From: a virus
Length of the DNA stretch: 64,000 nucleotides
Reading direction: 5' to 3' (one strand)
Virus record (IMG/VR): IMGVR_UViG_3300012920_009134
Location: 35,732 to 99,731 of that record
Shown here: positions 6,434 through 62,182 of the stretch, piece by piece
How the letters are laid out: every line of letters begins with the position of its first letter
Position numbering within the stretch: position 1 is the stretch's first letter
Made by a program: the position numbers and the translations under genes
Notes under the pieces: generated by a model
What the model was told of the DNA's origin: nothing
Databases searched by the model: none
The model's input: the letters and a program-made list of their open reading frames with translations, nothing else

Positions 6434-7120
6434 ATGAGTAAAAAGATTTTTATTACAGGGTGTGCAAAATCAGGCACCACATTGTTACTGAGAATGTGTT
6501 ATGCATTCAAGGACACGGAAGTTTTATACAGAGAGGGGTTTGACGGACACGAACTACCATTCAATGATTTCGTTGATCATAAAAGTGAAAACAAGTTTAT
6601 TATTGGAAAGAGACACCCACCAGCACTTTTGAGTAACGTGTTGATTCCTGAATTCGCTGAACAGGCAGCAACCGTTATTTCACAAGACATTGCGATTATA
6701 AATGTTGTTAGGGATGGACGAGATGTAGTGCTCTCTGATGGCAACTATGTAAAACCAAGAAGATGGATCGATACTGTGAAACAGAGAGATAAAGAAGTGT
6801 TCGGTGCTTTGATCGATTTAGAAGTCAGGTATGAAGATTTAGTTAGAAATCCAGAGAAGATTCAAAAACAAATGGAAGAGTTGTTTGGATTGGAGTCGGA
6901 ACATAGTTTTGCAAAATATCCAGAGTACGTAGAAGATTGGGTCTACGAGTGGAATGTTTCTGTATTGGGTCGTGCAGGCAAGGGAAATGATTCTGATTAT
7001 GGTAAACGAAAGTTGAGTGACAAAGGTGTTGGCAAAGACCCAGAAGCATATAAGGACATATGTTCAGAACTGGAACTTCCTGAGTTTGAAAAATGTTTGA
7101 AGGAGTTGAGATACATATGA
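6434..7120 (+). CDS. PAPS-dependent sulfotransferase
   Basis: 5'-PSB loop IFITGCAKSGTTLL, 3'-PB motif VRDGRDVVLS, VRYEDLV.NP. Confidence 0.88.
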   Translation: MSKKIFITGCAKSGTTLLLRMCYAFKDTEVLYREGFDGHELPFNDFVDHKSENKFIIGKRHPPALLSNVLIPEFAEQAATVISQDIAIINVVRDGRDVVLSDGNYVKPRRWIDTVKQRDKEVFGALIDLEVRYEDLVRNPEKIQKQMEELFGLESEHSFAKYPEYVEDWVYEWNVSVLGRAGKGNDSDYGKRKLSDKGVGKDPEAYKDICSELELPEFEKCLKELRYI

Positions 7121-7986
7121 GAGCATTGGTTACAGGTCATGAAGGATACATTGGCGGTAATTTTGTAAAAGAATGGGTGAAGAGAGGTCATGAGTATCTT
7201 GGATATGATATGAAGAATAATCATGAGTTTGATCTCTCAAAAAGAATAAAAGAACTTTACATTAATCACAAAAACAAACCTATTGATGTTGTGATACATT
7301 TTGCTGCTATACCGAGAGTTGCTTTTAGTGTAGAACAACCAGTTTATGTTATGAATAACAATATAAACTCGACAACTAGAGTGTTGAATTGGGCAAAAAA
7401 AGAAAATATCCCAGTTGTTTATAGTTCGTCTTCTTCTGTTGTCGGTAACGGAACTGGTCCCGCTAGTCCATACGCGCTGTCTAAGTATGTTGGAGAAATG
7501 GAGACCATACTGTATAATCAGTTATATGGTCTTAAGACTGTAGCGTTGAGATATTTTAATGTCTATTCTTACGACCAACAGGCAGACAGTGAGTATGCCA
7601 CTGTTGTATGCAATTGGAAAAAGTTCATTACAGAGGGTCGGACTCCTTTTATTACCGGTGATGGAGAGCAGAGGAGAGACATGACTCATGTTGACGATAT
7701 CGTTTCAGCAAATATTTTCTGCGCAGAGAACATTGATAATGATGAACTTTGGGGGCACTGGTATGATATTGGATCTGGTGAAAACATTTCTTTAAATGAA
7801 TTGAAAGAAATTGTGTTACAATATTTCCCAGAGCAAAGATTTGACTATATAGACCCCAGACCAGGAGATGTAATGTATACTGAGGCAGATTTGTCTAAGT
7901 TCAAAGCACATGGGTGGGAAAGCAAGGTACGACTTCAAGAAGGTCTAAATCTTGTTTATAAGACATTAAAAGAGGAGTTGGGATAA
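7117..7986 (+). CDS. NAD-dependent nucleotide-sugar epimerase/dehydratase (extended SDR)
   Basis: VTGHEGYIG, HFAA, SSSSV, YALSK (YxxxK), RYFNVY, GDGEQRRD, RPGD. Start ATG 7117. Confidence 0.92.
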   Translation: MRALVTGHEGYIGGNFVKEWVKRGHEYLGYDMKNNHEFDLSKRIKELYINHKNKPIDVVIHFAAIPRVAFSVEQPVYVMNNNINSTTRVLNWAKKENIPVVYSSSSSVVGNGTGPASPYALSKYVGEMETILYNQLYGLKTVALRYFNVYSYDQQADSEYATVVCNWKKFITEGRTPFITGDGEQRRDMTHVDDIVSANIFCAENIDNDELWGHWYDIGSGENISLNELKEIVLQYFPEQRFDYIDPRPGDVMYTEADLSKFKAHGWESKVRLQEGLNLVYKTLKEELG

Positions 7987-8852
7987 TGAAGTTAGGTATT
8001 ATTGGAAATGGTTTTGTTGGTAACGCAATTGCACATGCTTTTATTCCATGCATGGAGGTAAAGATATATGACAAAAATCCAGATAAGTGCTTTAACGAAC
8101 TTGCTGATGTTGTTAATGATTCAGATGTGGTGTTCATATCGGTTCCAACCCCAATGACTCAAGAGGGGTTGATAGACTTGTCGATTGTACATGGCGTCTT
8201 TGAGGAAATCGAGTCTGTCAAGACTAATGAATCTAGACCTATTTTTGTTTTAAAATCAACAGTTGTACCAGGTACTACGAGAAAAATAAAACAAAAACAT
8301 CCCAATTTGCAGATCGTTTTTAATCCTGAGTTTTTGACAGAGCGACATGCTCGATTCGACTTTTTGAATCAAAGCAGGATTGTTCTTGGTTTTGAGGAGG
8401 ATCTTCAACCTGGACAAAGAAATCTTACAGTTGATAAGGTTAAGAAACTGTATGATCTTAGGTTTTCTGGAAACAACTTTATTACAACAAATTACGAGAC
8501 GGCAGAAATGATTAAGTATTTTAATAACCTCTTTTTTGCGGTAAAGGTATCTTTTATGAACGAAATGAAGTTAGTTGCAGACAAACTTGAAACAGTAAAC
8601 TGGGACAAGGCGGTAAGGGGTTTTGTTTCGGATGGGCGCGTGGGAGATTCGCATTTGCAAGTCCCTGGTCCAGATGGTAAGTGTGGTTTTGGTGGTTCGT
8701 GTTTCCCTAAAGATATAAACGCATTCATGACATTTGCTGATTCTATTGGATTAGATTTGGCAGTGTTGAAGGGTGCGTGGAAAACAAATCTAAATGTAAG
8801 ACCAGAGAAAGACTGGGAAAATCTAAAAGGAAGGGCAATATCGGATGACTAA
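7986..8852 (+). CDS. ugd: UDP-glucose/GDP-mannose dehydrogenase family, lacking the C-terminal domain
   Basis: GIIGNGFVG, SVPTP, KSTVVPGT, NPEFL, AEMIKY..N, GFGGSCFPKD (catalytic Cys). Confidence 0.9.
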   Translation: MKLGIIGNGFVGNAIAHAFIPCMEVKIYDKNPDKCFNELADVVNDSDVVFISVPTPMTQEGLIDLSIVHGVFEEIESVKTNESRPIFVLKSTVVPGTTRKIKQKHPNLQIVFNPEFLTERHARFDFLNQSRIVLGFEEDLQPGQRNLTVDKVKKLYDLRFSGNNFITTNYETAEMIKYFNNLFFAVKVSFMNEMKLVADKLETVNWDKAVRGFVSDGRVGDSHLQVPGPDGKCGFGGSCFPKDINAFMTFADSIGLDLAVLKGAWKTNLNVRPEKDWENLKGRAISDD

Positions 8853-9243
8853 AAGAGCAATGTTTATTGGTAGATGGCAACCATTTCATAATGGCCATAA
8901 GTGGTTGATTAACCAAAAACTAGGAGAAGGCAAACCAATCTTGATCGCGGTTAGGGATATCCCACCAGATGAAAAGAATCCGTTTACGACGGAGCAAACT
9001 GTAGAAATGATACAAAAGGTATACAGTGAACAAGATGTGGAGGTAGTTTGTATCCCAGACATTGAAAGTGTTAACTGGGGTCGTGGCGTTGGGTATGGAC
9101 TTAACGAGCACGTACCACCACAGAACATTGGATTCATTTCGGCAACAGGAATCAGAAACAACATCAAGGATGGTGTGGATTCTTGGCGAGAAAACGTAGA
9201 TCCGTCCATCCAAGAGATGGTCGTAAGGTATTTAGGAGAATAA
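8845..9243 (+). CDS. Small HxGH-type nucleotidyltransferase (cytidyltransferase-like); candidate sulfate adenylyltransferase
   Basis: GRWQPFHNGH, NPF, WGRGVGY, ISATGIR; ends 2 bp before APS kinase. Confidence 0.75.
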   Translation: MTKRAMFIGRWQPFHNGHKWLINQKLGEGKPILIAVRDIPPDEKNPFTTEQTVEMIQKVYSEQDVEVVCIPDIESVNWGRGVGYGLNEHVPPQNIGFISATGIRNNIKDGVDSWRENVDPSIQEMVVRYLGE

Positions 9244-9244
9244 A

Positions 9245-9787
9245 GTGAGCGGTATTTTTATACAAATGACAGGAATGAGCGGTGCTGGTAAGTCTACTAT
9301 GACTTTTCTTGCACAAACCAGACTCAGAGAAATGGGTCACAATGTAGAGGTGATTGATGGTGATGAGTATAGGGAAGGATTATGTAAGGATTTGGGATTT
9401 TCAAAAGAAGACAGGAATACGAATATTAGGAGATTGTCTTTCGTTGGGAAGGTGTTGTCTAGAAATGATGTGGTGTGTATAATGTCCGCTATAAATCCAT
9501 ACGACAGCGTCAGGAGAGAAGTTCAAGCAAACAATCCCTTGTCCAAAATAGTGTATGTTAAGTGTGAAATAGACACACTGATAGATAGAGATCCAAAAGG
9601 ACTATATCGAAGAGCACTTTTGCCAAAGGGTGATCCTGACCACATTCCAAATTTTACAGGTATTTCGGATCCTTTCGAGGTTCCAAAGAATGCAGACTTG
9701 GTTATTGATACAGAAAAGCAAACTGTAGATAAATCAGTTGATGTGTTGGTGGATTTTATATTAAAAAACTTAGGAGAAAAAAAATGA
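9245..9787 (+). CDS. cysC: Adenylylsulfate (APS) kinase
   Basis: TGMSGAGKST, IDGD, LGFSKEDRNTNIRR, RDPKGLY, NFTGISDPFEVP. Confidence 0.95.
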   Translation: MSGIFIQMTGMSGAGKSTMTFLAQTRLREMGHNVEVIDGDEYREGLCKDLGFSKEDRNTNIRRLSFVGKVLSRNDVVCIMSAINPYDSVRREVQANNPLSKIVYVKCEIDTLIDRDPKGLYRRALLPKGDPDHIPNFTGISDPFEVPKNADLVIDTEKQTVDKSVDVLVDFILKNLGEKK

Positions 9788-33700: not shown

Positions 33701-36700
33701 GACAAGATTTTAAACTAGTTGCAGGTCAAAAAACTATAAATGTTAGTAGCGGTAACAACAGGCGCGGCCGCGGGGCAGCATTTCAGTTTGCAGTGCCAAA
33801 TAGTAATGGTTTCACGCAGGGTGGCACTGCAAACCAAAAAAATAAAATACCTCACGGATGGAGAAGTTATGTTGCTAATAATACACCAAGGACTATAGCA
33901 GACGCCACAACTGGACCTAGACTTGCTAACTTAAACGGATCTGCAACAAACCTAGAATATCCTCACGTAATCGCTTTGGTTGGAACGGACAACAATGCTA
34001 ACGCGCACTCAAATAAAGGAACGGTACCGCGTTCACAGATTCCCGGTGGTGACGGAACAACCTATAGCACTAATATCTGGCGTCACATAGAGACAACCGG
34101 ATCTGCGATTAGCGTCACAAAAGGTGCTGTTGTGCAGGTTCATATAAGGACAGGAAATCATGCATCGAATATAGATAGTTGGGGGATGTTAAAGGCTTCA
34201 AGTGACTTGTTTGTTCAGATTGGCACTGGCACCACTTGGACAACAATAGGAAAAGTTACGGCGTTTCAAAATCCAGAATGGGATTCTTGGCCGGACAACA
34301 AGTTTAGAAGATATGTGTTTGGTGTACCACCAAATGCCACTGCTGCTTTTGCTAGTGGCGTAGATCTTAGGTTCCTGCAAGCGTCAAGTCTCACTGCTGA
34401 TTTCAGGTCGGGTTGGTTGATTGCTATGCCAACTGTCTTTCATTGTCTTGAAGAGGTAGGTAACAATGAAGCGTTAAACGATCAATATAAGTTTGCGAAA
34501 GATTTTGTTGGACTTGCAGAGTTGGATACACCGGTAAAATCATATACATCAGCAAGAGTTCCGGCATCAAAACGAAGATATTATTCTCCACAAAATTTTG
34601 AACCCTCCTTATTGTCTTTGGGCGCTTTAGATAAATACGGTGACGAAATTGAACCAAGATTTTTTGGATCAGCAAAACACCATAGTGCATCGTCCATATC
34701 TTCAGATTATTTAGAAACTTATGATCAAATAGTAATGCAAGATGCTCAAAAGCAGTATGTGTCGTACTACCAAAAAGACGATAAAAAAGATCACCATCTG
34801 TATGGTTCGCAGTTCTTTAGGACGCCTGAGCACGCTTCTAGGAATCCTTTTAACTTTAGCAACTATGCCGACTTTAGAGAACAATCTAGATTGCTGGCAA
34901 AAGATTATGCACTGGTGCCAGAATTTAGAATTAGCGAGCACATGGATTTTTATCTCAACACTATTGGAGGTGAAGATCCGTTCTTTAGTTGTAATGATAC
35001 TTTTTTAAATATAACTGGTTCTGATGTAGAATCGCCCGATAATAGTGCTGTTGACAACTTTTATGAAGTCTACAGTCATACAGATTTTCTAAAACATTTT
35101 AGTGTTGTAGAGGATGAGTTTAGAGAGGTAAAAACTGTTAAACCAACAAAGTTAAAGTTGGAGTGTAGAGCGTTTAAGAAGTTCTTACCCTACAGAGGAT
35201 TGTATCCAGCAGACAGGATGACGCAATTGGCATCAGATTTCAGTTCATCTTATTCTGCTTTCATTACTGGCGGACACTTTAGAAATGTATTGGCACCTTA
35301 TTACGCACCTGGAATTGGATTTAACTCTATAAAATCTGGTCTTGCAGTCGACTATCCGATTATAGAACCTCATAAAGATAGAATTTATAATCAGTATGCT
35401 GTTATGTTTCAGTCAGCAAGTCTTGCAATCGATGAAAATTTTGGCAATGCTAATGGAGCAGGTCCTCACTCGAACGGAACAAGATCTGACGGAACTCCGT
35501 TAATCGCTGGCGCTGCTTCTACAAGTCCAAAACTATCTAGAAACAGAGTAGAGATAGGCAAACCAGCAGACTGGGCAAAGGTTATTTCTGGAAGTCTTGC
35601 ACCAGGCGGCCCTGGCGTATCTGGAAAGGCAATCACCGTTTCTTTGTGGATGTACTTTCCAAAGGTTTATAGTGGTCATGGATCACTCGACGGACACTCT
35701 CCAACTTCTATTGGACTCTATAGACAAAAAGGAAATATAATATCTTTTGGTGGATCCCGAAGAAACATCCCCCTCTTCGACGCGTATTGGAGGAGTGGTG
35801 TTAATTTTGGTTACTTTATCGGCGTGGATTCTATGGGTGGTAACTTTGATAGGCGAACGTATGATGCAAACTTATCTGTAGCAGGACACAATTCATCTCT
35901 TATGGTAGGCAAGGGTTTTACTAATGATAGGATGTATACCATAGGGTTTACTTGCACCGGCGGTGATGGCATCACCAACCTCGGTAGCACCGATGGTTTC
36001 TTTTCTTTTGTTCGAGTTTCGAACGCTTATAACTCTACAGAAGATTTGAAAGCAATACATCCAGGTTGGAATCACATATTATTATCCTTAGAGTTAGACA
36101 ATATTGGTATATCGTTTGCGGGACCTGGAAATACTAACGGATCAGTCAAAGGTTTTAATGCCTGGGTGAATGGAGAAAAATACACTGGCGCAGGCGTAAT
36201 AAAATGTAGTAGCGATTATTTTAACAATGGACAGTCAAATTTTACAAATACATCTTATCCGGTACTTGATGAGGGCACCAAAACAACAGGTGAAAATGAA
36301 GATTTTGTTTGTATTGGACAGAATGTCAAAGCAGTTGAGTACTACAATTCTGTTGCAACGGGATCTTTACTGTCACCAACCCATAGGCATATTAATTCAA
36401 CAGCGCTGCATTTGGAAGATTACATTTTCGATGATGGTACTATTGATGGCACGAATTCTGCGCACACAAGCAAACTTAATACTTACACAGATGCACGCAC
36501 TGTGGATGGTGATGCTATTGACATTAGTGATAATATTATGAATGATTTTGTGTATCCGGGTGAAAATATGATGTCAGAGGTAATCATACTAAACACACCC
36601 GGTACAGATCAAATGGCAAGAACTTTAAGTGGATACGTAAAAGGAACACCTGACTTTAGGGCGATGATACCAAAGGTATCTCCATTCGTGTTGGGACAAT

Positions 36701-60217: not shown

Positions 60218-62182
60218 ATGGCAGGCGGAAGAAAACAAAACCCAAAAAACGCACAAAGCACTCTGTTTAAGAAGTTAACTAGACTCTTATCTGGACCAAT
60301 TGTAAACTACAGAACTCAAACAGCAAGAAGACTCAGAAGACGCCAGTTAGATAAGTATGCTAATAAGTTTTTATCTACCAGCGGAAAGCAGTTTAAGAGA
60401 ATGGATTACAATCCGTTTGCTGGATTGTACTCTGGACAACAAGGCAATCAAAGTAGACTAGAGAGGTATGTAGATTTTGATCAAATGGAATACACACCGG
60501 AGTGCGCATCAGCACTCGATATCTATGCGGATGAAATGACAAACCACAGTGCAATGTCTCCGCTTATGACTATTGACTGCAACAATGAAGAGATTAAAGG
60601 TATCTTATCGGCGCTATATTTTAATATCATGAATGTTGAATACAACATTTTTGGTTGGTGCCGTACGATGGTTAAATATGGAGATTTTTTCTTATACCTT
60701 GACATTGATGATGTCCTCGGCATTAAGAGCGTTATAGGTCTACCAGGTCAGGAGATCGAAAGATTAGAAGGTGAAGACAAGTCGAATCCAAATTATTGCC
60801 AGTTCCAGTGGAACTCGGCAGGACTTACTTTTGAGAACTGGCAGATTGGACATTTTAGAATTCTAGGTAATGATAAGTATACCCCCTATGGTACTTCTGT
60901 TCTGGAACCCGCCCGACGTATTTGGCGACAAATGACTTTGCTTGAAGATGCGATGATGGCGTATCGTATTGTGCGATCTCCCGAGAGAAGAGTGTTTTAT
61001 ATTGACGTTGGTAATATACCCCCAACAGATATTGAACAGTATATGCAAAAAGTTATGACCTCTATGAAGAGAAACCAGGTAGTTGATTCTGCATCTGGTC
61101 GTGTTGATCTAAGATACAATCCAATGTCTGTGGATGAAGATTACTTTATTCCTACTCGCGCAGGGTCTTCTTCGAGAGTGGAAAGTCTACCAGGAGGTAC
61201 ATATACTGGTGATATTGACGACGTTAAATATCTTCGAGACAAGTTGTTTTCAGCACTAAAGATTCCAGGATCTTATTTAACCAGCACAAATGCCGAAGCA
61301 GGCGGTGGAGAAGACGCCACAACACTTGCGCAAAAGGACATTAGATTTGCCAGAACAGTTCAGAGACTTCAACGATCTGTAGTCACTGAGATGGAAAAGA
61401 TTGGTATTGTTCACCTCTACACCCTTGGGTATCGTGGAGAAGACTTGGTTAATTTTAAACTGAAACTCAACAGTCCATCCAAGATTGCTGAACTACAAGA
61501 ACTTGAACACTGGAAGACCAAGTTTGATGTTGCCTCTACTGCTACTGAAGGATTCTTTAGTCGTCAGTGGATTGCCGCTCACCTGTTCAACATGACTGAA
61601 GAAGAGTTTGTTAAGAACCAGAGGCAGATGTACTACGATAGACAGTTTGACGCAAGACTTGAGGCAGCAGCAGAGCAGGCACAAGCAGAAGCAACACCAT
61701 CGGGTGGTGAAGGTGAGGAAGACTTACTCGGTGGAGATCTTGGTACTGATGGCGAAGGCGGCGAAGGCATTGATCTTACGGGTGGCGAAGATGCTCTCGG
61801 TGGCGGCGAAGACCTTGGCGGTGATGTAGGGGGAGAAGAGGATACCGGCGCTCTACTCGCAGCACCAGGTTCAAGAGAAGATACGTTTGACGATAAGCAC
61901 AAGAGAGCAAAGGGCAAGATTCATATCACAAAACAAATGACTGGTGAGAGAGATAAACGAGATCACGGAGGTCGATCTCAGTCTTACAGGACTGTGCCGG
62001 GATATAAGAAACTAAAATCTTTATCAAGAGGAGTAGTAGAGGAGGATAAGCAGAGACTTTCAGAGTCTAACGATACTACTTACTATAGTGAAGAAGAGAA
62101 CATATTTTCTTTAAATAGGGAAGTATCGGATCTGATTAGCGAATTACAAAATAGGAAATCCAAAAATGAGACTGAAGCATAA
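60218..62182 (+). CDS. Portal protein, T4 gp20-like, with acidic Gly-rich C-terminal extension
   Basis: LLEDAMMAYRIVRSPERRVFYIDVGN, EDYFIP.R, SLPGG, DDVKYLRDKLFSALKIP, DIRFAR. Confidence 0.96.
   Translation: MAGGRKQNPKNAQSTLFKKLTRLLSGPIVNYRTQTARRLRRRQLDKYANKFLSTSGKQFKRMDYNPFAGLYSGQQGNQSRLERYVDFDQMEYTPECASALDIYADEMTNHSAMSPLMTIDCNNEEIKGILSALYFNIMNVEYNIFGWCRTMVKYGDFFLYLDIDDVLGIKSVIGLPGQEIERLEGEDKSNPNYCQFQWNSAGLTFENWQIGHFRILGNDKYTPYGTSVLEPARRIWRQMTLLEDAMMAYRIVRSPERRVFYIDVGNIPPTDIEQYMQKVMTSMKRNQVVDSASGRVDLRYNPMSVDEDYFIPTRAGSSSRVESLPGGTYTGDIDDVKYLRDKLFSALKIPGSYLTSTNAEAGGGEDATTLAQKDIRFARTVQRLQRSVVTEMEKIGIVHLYTLGYRGEDLVNFKLKLNSPSKIAELQELEHWKTKFDVASTATEGFFSRQWIAAHLFNMTEEEFVKNQRQMYYDRQFDARLEAAAEQAQAEATPSGGEGEEDLLGGDLGTDGEGGEGIDLTGGEDALGGGEDLGGDVGGEEDTGALLAAPGSREDTFDDKHKRAKGKIHITKQMTGERDKRDHGGRSQSYRTVPGYKKLKSLSRGVVEEDKQRLSESNDTTYYSEEENIFSLNREVSDLISELQNRKSKNETEA

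Follow-up and report, generated by a model that had tools for sequence, protein, structure and literature searches.

The gene at positions 8845 to 9243 (plus strand) of a 64,000-nucleotide stretch of DNA from a large marine phage (the window; positions 35,732 to 99,731 of IMG/VR record IMGVR_UViG_3300012920_009134) encodes a 132-amino-acid (aa) nucleotidyltransferase (NT) of the HIGH (HxGH) superfamily, which is probably a very small, so far unrecognized enzyme that carries out the opening step of sulfate activation. On the basis of sequence relationships and genomic context, NT is quite likely to be a minimal sulfate adenylyltransferase that makes adenosine 5′-phosphosulfate (APS) from ATP and sulfate, with the APS kinase encoded by the next gene, cysC (9245 to 9787, plus strand), pulling the reaction to 3′-phosphoadenosine 5′-phosphosulfate (PAPS). 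To our knowledge, sulfate activation has been thought to be limited to two types of enzyme, Sat and CysDN. It is likely that NT represents a third, independent class of ATP sulfurylase, the smallest known (~130 aa), which would serve as a housekeeping enzyme in a Dadabacteria-type lineage and would form, with APS kinase, a mobile two-gene PAPS synthase spread among large marine phages, bacteria of the candidate phyla radiation (CPR), DPANN and other archaea, Acidobacteriota, Omnitrophota, and haloarchaea. We infer sulfate as the substrate from sequence data; the same candidate function had been proposed in the first-pass annotation, which read NT as a stripped-down sulfate adenylyltransferase, and it is supported by the linkage of NT to CysC and by its complementarity with Sat and CysDN in genomes that keep the sulfate pathway.

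The window contains an example of the proposed module, NT next to or fused with an APS kinase; here the two genes are adjacent. The second gene encodes a canonical APS kinase: its 180-aa open reading frame (ORF), which has a GTG start, matches PF01583 (E = 9e-43) over profile positions 2 to 152 of 152 and scores 165.4 bits against TIGR00455, above the equivalog-domain cut-off of 138.7. The P-loop, DGD, DLGFS, NIRR, KGLY, and FTGI motifs are invariant in the alignment of 26 CysC partners (A4). As had been noted from the letters alone, the 132-aa HxGH protein is encoded just before cysC; its TAA stop codon (9241 to 9243) is followed by one spacer base and then by the GTG of cysC at 9245, with an AGGAG seven bases 5′ of this start. 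Translation of cysC is probably coupled to that of NT across the 1-nucleotide spacer.

Adjacency or fusion of homologues to CysC had been set as a test of the sulfate adenylyltransferase reading, and its outcome is clearly positive. CysC adjoins NT in 35 of 42 related IMG/VR viral loci and does so in both gene orders, with NT first in the close relatives of the window and CysC first in others; the identity of these kinases to the CysC of the window ranges from 31 to 83%. Among the exceptions, one locus is cut at the NT start (L010), one has a diverged kinase adjoining NT (L040), and three more are 11 to 55% fragments. Another, a complete 190-kb phage (L020), has CysC ~50 kb away, and two Sulfotransfer_2 genes and a GT25 glycosyltransferase gene come directly after its NT (L020:4998-7409), an arrangement that ties NT to sulfation independently of CysC. 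The family as a whole comprises 3019 matches within the length range applied, most of them marine metagenomic, with contigs reaching ~196 kb. Among the best 150 representatives of 50%-identity clusters, 46 are fusions (33 CysC-NT and 13 NT-CysC). The three architectures are interspersed in a tree of 121 NT domains, where parsimony counts 28 changes and the well-supported branches alone require several; judged from this tree, NT-CysC fusions appear to have arisen repeatedly. APS formation is strongly unfavorable and needs the pull of a kinase and the removal of pyrophosphate (PPi), so tight coupling or fusion of NT to an APS kinase is expected.

At least 570 relatives of NT occur in cellular genomes, as counted with one genome per species. 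The closest, at 63 to 66% identity, are in genomes labeled Dadabacteria or Thermodesulfobacteriota, several of which are single complete chromosomes. In this Dadabacteria-type lineage, NT (for example, L049:6001-6393) stands by itself, with alaS, hemB, and genes for a sigma-70 factor and a deacetylase around it, and cysC lies ~165 kb away beside ndk. Of 50 NT-bearing cellular genomes from at least a dozen phyla, all but one (49) encode an APS kinase; Sat is encoded by 2 and a CysD-like protein by 6. Halocatena pleomorpha, an isolate, has a CysC-NT fusion and neither Sat nor CysD. We also surveyed 120 species genomes of one GTDB phylum (that of genome G006), with a threshold for NT of ≥154 bits: NT was found in 78, Sat in 18, and CysD in 15, the three sets do not overlap, and 9 genomes have none of them. 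CysC accompanies NT in 74 of the 78 genomes and Sat in 15 of the 18, and it is present in none of the 15 with CysD. A clade of ~1-Mb genomes in this phylum (G148 to G163) has full-length CysD without APS kinase, NT, or Sat, implying that APS is reduced directly by an APS reductase, a third solution for this phylum.

Five complete chromosomes of the NT clade each encode CysC, one CysH-type PAPS/APS reductase, a two-repeat NIR_SIR sulfite-reductase-type protein, and a canonical NadD. Neither Sat nor CysD was found in these five, so their CysC is without any other visible source of APS. A search for aprA gave no match in the same genomes, but none in any control genome either. In G006, cysH adjoins a gene for a PHO4/PiT (CysP-like) permease; the Bacillus subtilis sulfate permease CysP is a permease of this kind. 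As predicted from their gene content, the NT-clade genomes provide for uptake, the APS kinase step, and the reduction of both PAPS/APS and sulfite, and only the sulfate-adenylylating step is missing.

NT is a stripped-down HIGH-superfamily adenylyltransferase; Sat is among its relatives, but others are closer. Its only family match is the generic PF01467 (CTP_transf_like; 30.1 bits versus a cut-off of 21), and this score above the gathering threshold, together with FHNGH and ISATGIR in the translation, places it in the HIGH/cytidylyltransferase-like superfamily. An AlphaFold2 model built with 27 homologues (predicted local distance difference test score, 95.5; predicted template modeling score, 0.87) has a Rossmann-like alternation of three strands and helices. 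In a Foldseek search against the Protein Data Bank (PDB), phosphopantetheine adenylyltransferase (PPAT) and NadM-type nicotinamide mononucleotide (NMN) adenylyltransferases (NMNAT) lead and are the only enzymes among the matches listed; Sat was seen only in a second fold comparison, with VIA-align, which covered 48,161 chains. There, the model has the NMNAT core fold, with NadM at the top (1f9a; Z = 14.1, root mean square deviation [rmsd] of 2.6 Å over 128 residues, 27% identity), followed by PPAT (4nah; Z = 13.7) and, with Z scores of 10 to 11, by nicotinate mononucleotide adenylyltransferases. The catalytic domain of the Thermus ATP sulfurylase (1v47) superposes with a Z score of 10.5 (rmsd of 2.6 Å over 125 residues, 22% identity), and other Sat enzymes have Z scores of 7 to 9. 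In the comparison with Sat and NadM that the first-pass annotation had called for, the Sat catalytic domain does superpose on NT, but NadM and PPAT are closer.

The same comparisons bear on the possibility that NT is a shortened NadM-type NMN adenylyltransferase serving phage NAD salvage. The best sequence matches of NT, like the best fold match, are NadM-type enzymes, here of archaea (NF002243, E = 4e-14; PDB 1ej2, E = 1e-6), and NadM-Nudix enzymes are encoded by other phages. However, only residues 3 to 74 align, and the scores fall far below the cut-offs for full-length NadM (52.5 versus 127 bits for NF002243 and 42.3 versus 181.2 bits for TIGR01527). NT is also ~35 residues shorter, the loss being in the second half of the protein, and it has no linked NadV or Nudix partner, its partner always being an APS kinase. 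Furthermore, NT is not needed for NAD synthesis in the NT-clade genomes, because these already have the canonical NadD. We therefore regard a role in NAD salvage as very improbable.

Three motifs had been said to parallel those of Sat. The first, GRWQPFHNGH (8869 to 8898, plus strand; residues 9 to 18), is the nucleotide-binding HxGH motif with G9, R10, H15, and H18; the second, GRGVGY (9079 to 9096, plus strand; residues 79 to 84), is a family-specific loop that contains R80; and the third, ISATGIR (9136 to 9156, plus strand; residues 98 to 104), is the C-terminal ISxTxxR motif of the superfamily. All three are present, and hhalign of the NT family with seven Sat sequences pairs QPFHxGH with NPIHRAHE, GR-GVGY with VGRDHAGVG, and ISATxIR with LSGTKVR, but the alignment is weak (probability of 26%, E = 7e-4). 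The parallels are informative only in part and not decisive: HxGH and ISxT are superfamily-wide, and GRxQPFHxGH is a signature of NadM. According to the sequence alignment, the GRGVGY loop is located where NadM has a longer segment for its second substrate, and we infer that R80 and this loop form a candidate sulfate site.

Conservation was counted in 106 cluster representatives, both fused and standalone. In the HxGH motif, G9, R10, and H18 are each found in 105 of them and H15 in 103; in the loop, the numbers are 101 for G79 and for R80, 103 for G83, and 100 for Y84; and in ISxTxxR, S99 is kept in 104 and R104 in 103. Because these residues are near-invariant (100 to 105 of 106) whether the domain is fused or free, the NT domain appears to be maintained as an enzyme.

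Several findings weigh against reading NT as a sulfate adenylyltransferase. By sequence and by fold, its closest relatives are NadM and PPAT and not Sat. NT itself has no match to PF01747 at E ≤ 0.01, and its homologues reach only 10 to 12 bits (E = 0.009 to 0.04) against this profile in six-frame searches. The QxRNP sulfate-binding motif of Sat is not reproduced at the sequence level, where NT has GRWQP in place of QTRNP, and R10 of NT is one position off the arginine of the Sat motif and is shared with NadM. The distribution of NT, Sat, and CysD in the G006 phylum is structured by clade, and the exclusion may reflect only two or three evolutionary events. An Acidobacteriota genome (G020) has a bona fide cysD-cysN pair divergent beside an NT-CysC fusion and a Wzm/Wzt exporter, and two other genomes (G017 and G247) have Sat-CysC besides NT; in view of these co-occurrences, NT is not always the sole possible source of APS. 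Many of the cellular matches, moreover, are metagenome-assembled genomes (MAGs), and some are probably mis-binned phage contigs.

The co-occurrences favor another possibility, in which NT is a partner of CysC without ATP sulfurylase activity, either as a scaffold or regulatory domain or through another reaction on APS, PAPS, or adenosine 3′,5′-bisphosphate (PAP), with APS coming from the host or from a further enzyme. The fusion beside cysDN in G020 is the only one of 39 fusions with R80 changed to H, which is suggestive although a single case. In addition, the fold matches include 3cr8 (Z = 9.0), in which APS kinase is fused to a Sat-like domain that is reported to be inactive, and an inactive Sat-like part is also the precedent set by the APS kinase of Thiobacillus denitrificans. 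Nevertheless, a noncatalytic or non-sulfurylase role seems unlikely. The near-invariance of HxGH, ISxT, and GR-GVGY among 106 diverse members argues for catalysis, NT stands alone at ~165 kb from cysC in complete chromosomes without a visible APS source, and it never shares a genome with Sat or CysD in the G006 phylum.

In Acidobacteria and Halobacteria, the NT module is sporadic and is an accessory cassette, present in fused form in 6 of 101 sampled genomes (5 of 100 without the unpublished genome G200) and in 4 of 121, respectively. At L069:3809-6948, in an Acidobacteriota MAG with the arrangement described for G020, cysN (412 aa) and a C-terminally short cysD (267 aa) face away from an NT-CysC fusion that has H at the otherwise near-invariant R80, and genes for a glycan ABC exporter of the Wzm/Wzt type adjoin them. 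A tandem pair of APS-kinase genes comes after NT in each of two archaeal MAGs, one of Methanosarcinales and one of an unclassified archaeon (L090:6391-7475 and L093:6394-7484). The contig JAYYZX010000006.1 of a “Bacteroidota MAG” (L071) and the viral record UViG_3300030329_006012 (L020) are both 190,225 bp long; the contig probably represents a phage genome that ended up in a MAG bin, the pairing hints at a Bacteroidota host, and several “cellular” matches from Flavobacteriales and Bacteroidota may be viral.

In the window, NT and cysC are part of a glycan gene cluster that contains NeuA-like, NeuB, GT2, epimerase, and UDP-sugar dehydrogenase genes. A PAPS-dependent sulfotransferase is encoded within this cluster, four genes 5′ of the NT-cysC pair (6434 to 7120, plus strand; PF13469, E = 3.5e-9; PF00685, E = 2.6e-6), and its translation has a PKxGTT-like GCAKSGTT loop and an RDGRDVVLS motif. 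This gene is kept upstream of NT-cysC in relatives L001 to L009, L018, and L022. Directly upstream of NT is a UDP-glucose/GDP-mannose dehydrogenase-like gene (7986 to 8852; 288 aa), the stop codon of which overlaps the ATG of NT by 8 nucleotides (ATGACTAA), and the dehydrogenase-like gene, NT, and cysC look like a translationally coupled trio. The dehydrogenase is short, with matches to a partial N-terminal domain and to the central family domain and none to the C-terminal UDP-binding domain. The first-pass annotation had remarked on a sulfotransferase and an APS kinase without Sat or CysDN in the window, and this holds for a larger region: Sat, CysD, and CysN were not found in the whole 99,731-bp viral record, a genome fragment, by a PF01747 search and tblastn with Sat, CysD, and CysN, nor were they found in a 100%-complete relative of 192.6 kb. 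Judged by a portal-like gene (60218 to 62179), Microcystis phage Mel-JY01 and Flavobacterium phage immuto come closest among cultured phages, with ~42% identity.

The richness of this cluster in sugar-nucleotide genes, as listed above, would also fit an NT that acts on another phosphorylated substrate of the glycan pathway, such as a sugar phosphate, glycerol phosphate, or an ulosonate precursor, with its proximity to cysC reflecting no more than a shared operon, and PF01467 does include glycerol-3-phosphate and heptose-1-phosphate nucleotidyltransferases of ~130 aa. This seems distinctly improbable, since the linkage of NT tracks CysC and not glycosyltransferases through both gene orders and the fusions, and since the Dadabacteria-type NT lies among alaS, the sigma factor gene, and hemB without glycan genes. 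The fold points the same way, as cytidylyltransferases fit NT less well (Z = 7 to 8) than adenylyltransferases do (Z = 11 to 14).

NT can be compared with known systems as follows. Sat (PF01747; for example, Thermus thermophilus 1v47 and yeast 1j70) shares with it the HIGH superfamily, the reaction proposed for NT, the HxxH and (I/L)S(A/G)TxxR motifs, frequent fusion or adjacency to APS kinase, and, in the 26%-probability hhalign alignment, a GR…GVG loop. However, Sat has ~390 aa or more compared with 132, and its PUA-like N-terminal domain and QxRNP are absent from NT. NadM (MJ0541, 1f9a; Methanothermobacter thermautotrophicus, 1ej2; TIGR01527) is closest to NT and has GRxQPFHxGH and the core in common with it, but the second half of NT is not alignable by sequence, and NT is partnered with APS kinase instead of NAD genes and occurs beside NadD. 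CysDN catalyzes the pathway step proposed for NT, fusions of CysN to CysC are common, and no surveyed genome of the G006 phylum has both CysD and NT; the fold of CysDN is unrelated (a PAPS-reductase-like ATP pyrophosphatase plus an EF-Tu-like GTPase) and its reaction is driven by GTP, whereas NT has no GTPase partner. The metazoan PAPS synthase (PAPSS1, 1x6v) has the kinase-then-transferase order of the CysC-NT fusions and differs by its full-length Sat domain. PPAT and dephospho-coenzyme A (CoA) kinase, as in CoA synthase, resemble the proposed NT/CysC pair in that adenylylation on a HIGH fold is followed by P-loop phosphorylation of a 3′-OH, but the substrate is phosphopantetheine and the partner is CoaE and not APS kinase.

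A more distant branch is represented by phrog_10255, a “kinase” of Xylella, Xanthomonas, and Stenotrophomonas siphophages. It is a kinase-NT fusion, as found in the NT-CysC family, and the NT of the window matches its C-terminal part (E = 1.6e-7) and CysC its N-terminal part (E = 1.5e-6), with tblastn identities of 31 to 33%; it differs in that the kinase half matches APS kinase weakly and partially. These fusions (H3 to H14) are ~230 aa long and are annotated as “kinase” or “adenylylsulfate kinase.” Degenerate forms like phrog_10255 are found in Inquilinus and Rhodospirillaceae genomes that have a normal CysDN-CysC, and the function of phrog_10255 may differ from that of the core NT family.

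A small cap-less phosphatase domain of the haloacid dehalogenase (HAD) type (~125 aa) travels with the NT-CysC module. At L013:4048-4992, it forms the C terminus of CysC (L013:4615-4992) in a 315-aa ORF (APS_kinase at residues 25 to 173 and HAD at residues 204 to 282), and in L020 it is encoded by a separate gene immediately upstream of NT (L020:4630-4998). Many loci with CysC first have a gap of 380 to 570 nucleotides before NT, which suggests that the CysC-HAD fusion is common. The domain has only generic HAD-IIIA matches, with none to a pyrophosphatase or PAP phosphatase family, and it could be either type of enzyme.

Sulfate adenylylation is native to the chemistry of the HIGH superfamily, as Sat is a member. 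In the proposed mechanism, NT would convert ATP and sulfate to APS and PPi on a bare Rossmann-like HIGH core, and the co-translated APS kinase would at once phosphorylate APS to PAPS. The unfavorable formation of APS would be pulled kinetically by CysC and possibly also by a pyrophosphatase. PAPS would then feed the phage sulfotransferase, which would decorate the glycan made by the surrounding gene cluster, giving the phage a route from sulfate through PAPS to a sulfated glycan that is independent of sulfate activation by the host.

No account of the NT family, or of an ATP sulfurylase of the NT type, was found in a full-text literature search. A paper on sulfate assimilation in anaerobic methanotrophic archaea (ANME) names only Sat and CysDN (PMC6286981). 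In source annotations, NT is “cytidyltransferase-like” and the fusions are labeled “adenylyl-sulfate kinase,” while the ESM Atlas has only generic “cytidyltransferase family” clusters, mostly viral. Many NT-bearing genomes are now scored as incomplete for sulfate assimilation or sulfation. If NT has the proposed activity, a pathway hole, in which APS kinase, PAPS reductase, and sulfite reductase occur without an ATP sulfurylase, would be closed in a bacterial lineage and in many bacteria and archaea with small genomes, and the inference of sulfur metabolism from metagenomes would change. For enzymatic sulfation, the NT-CysC pair would offer a very compact module with which to regenerate PAPS, and large marine phages would carry a self-sufficient route from sulfate through PAPS to sulfated glycans.

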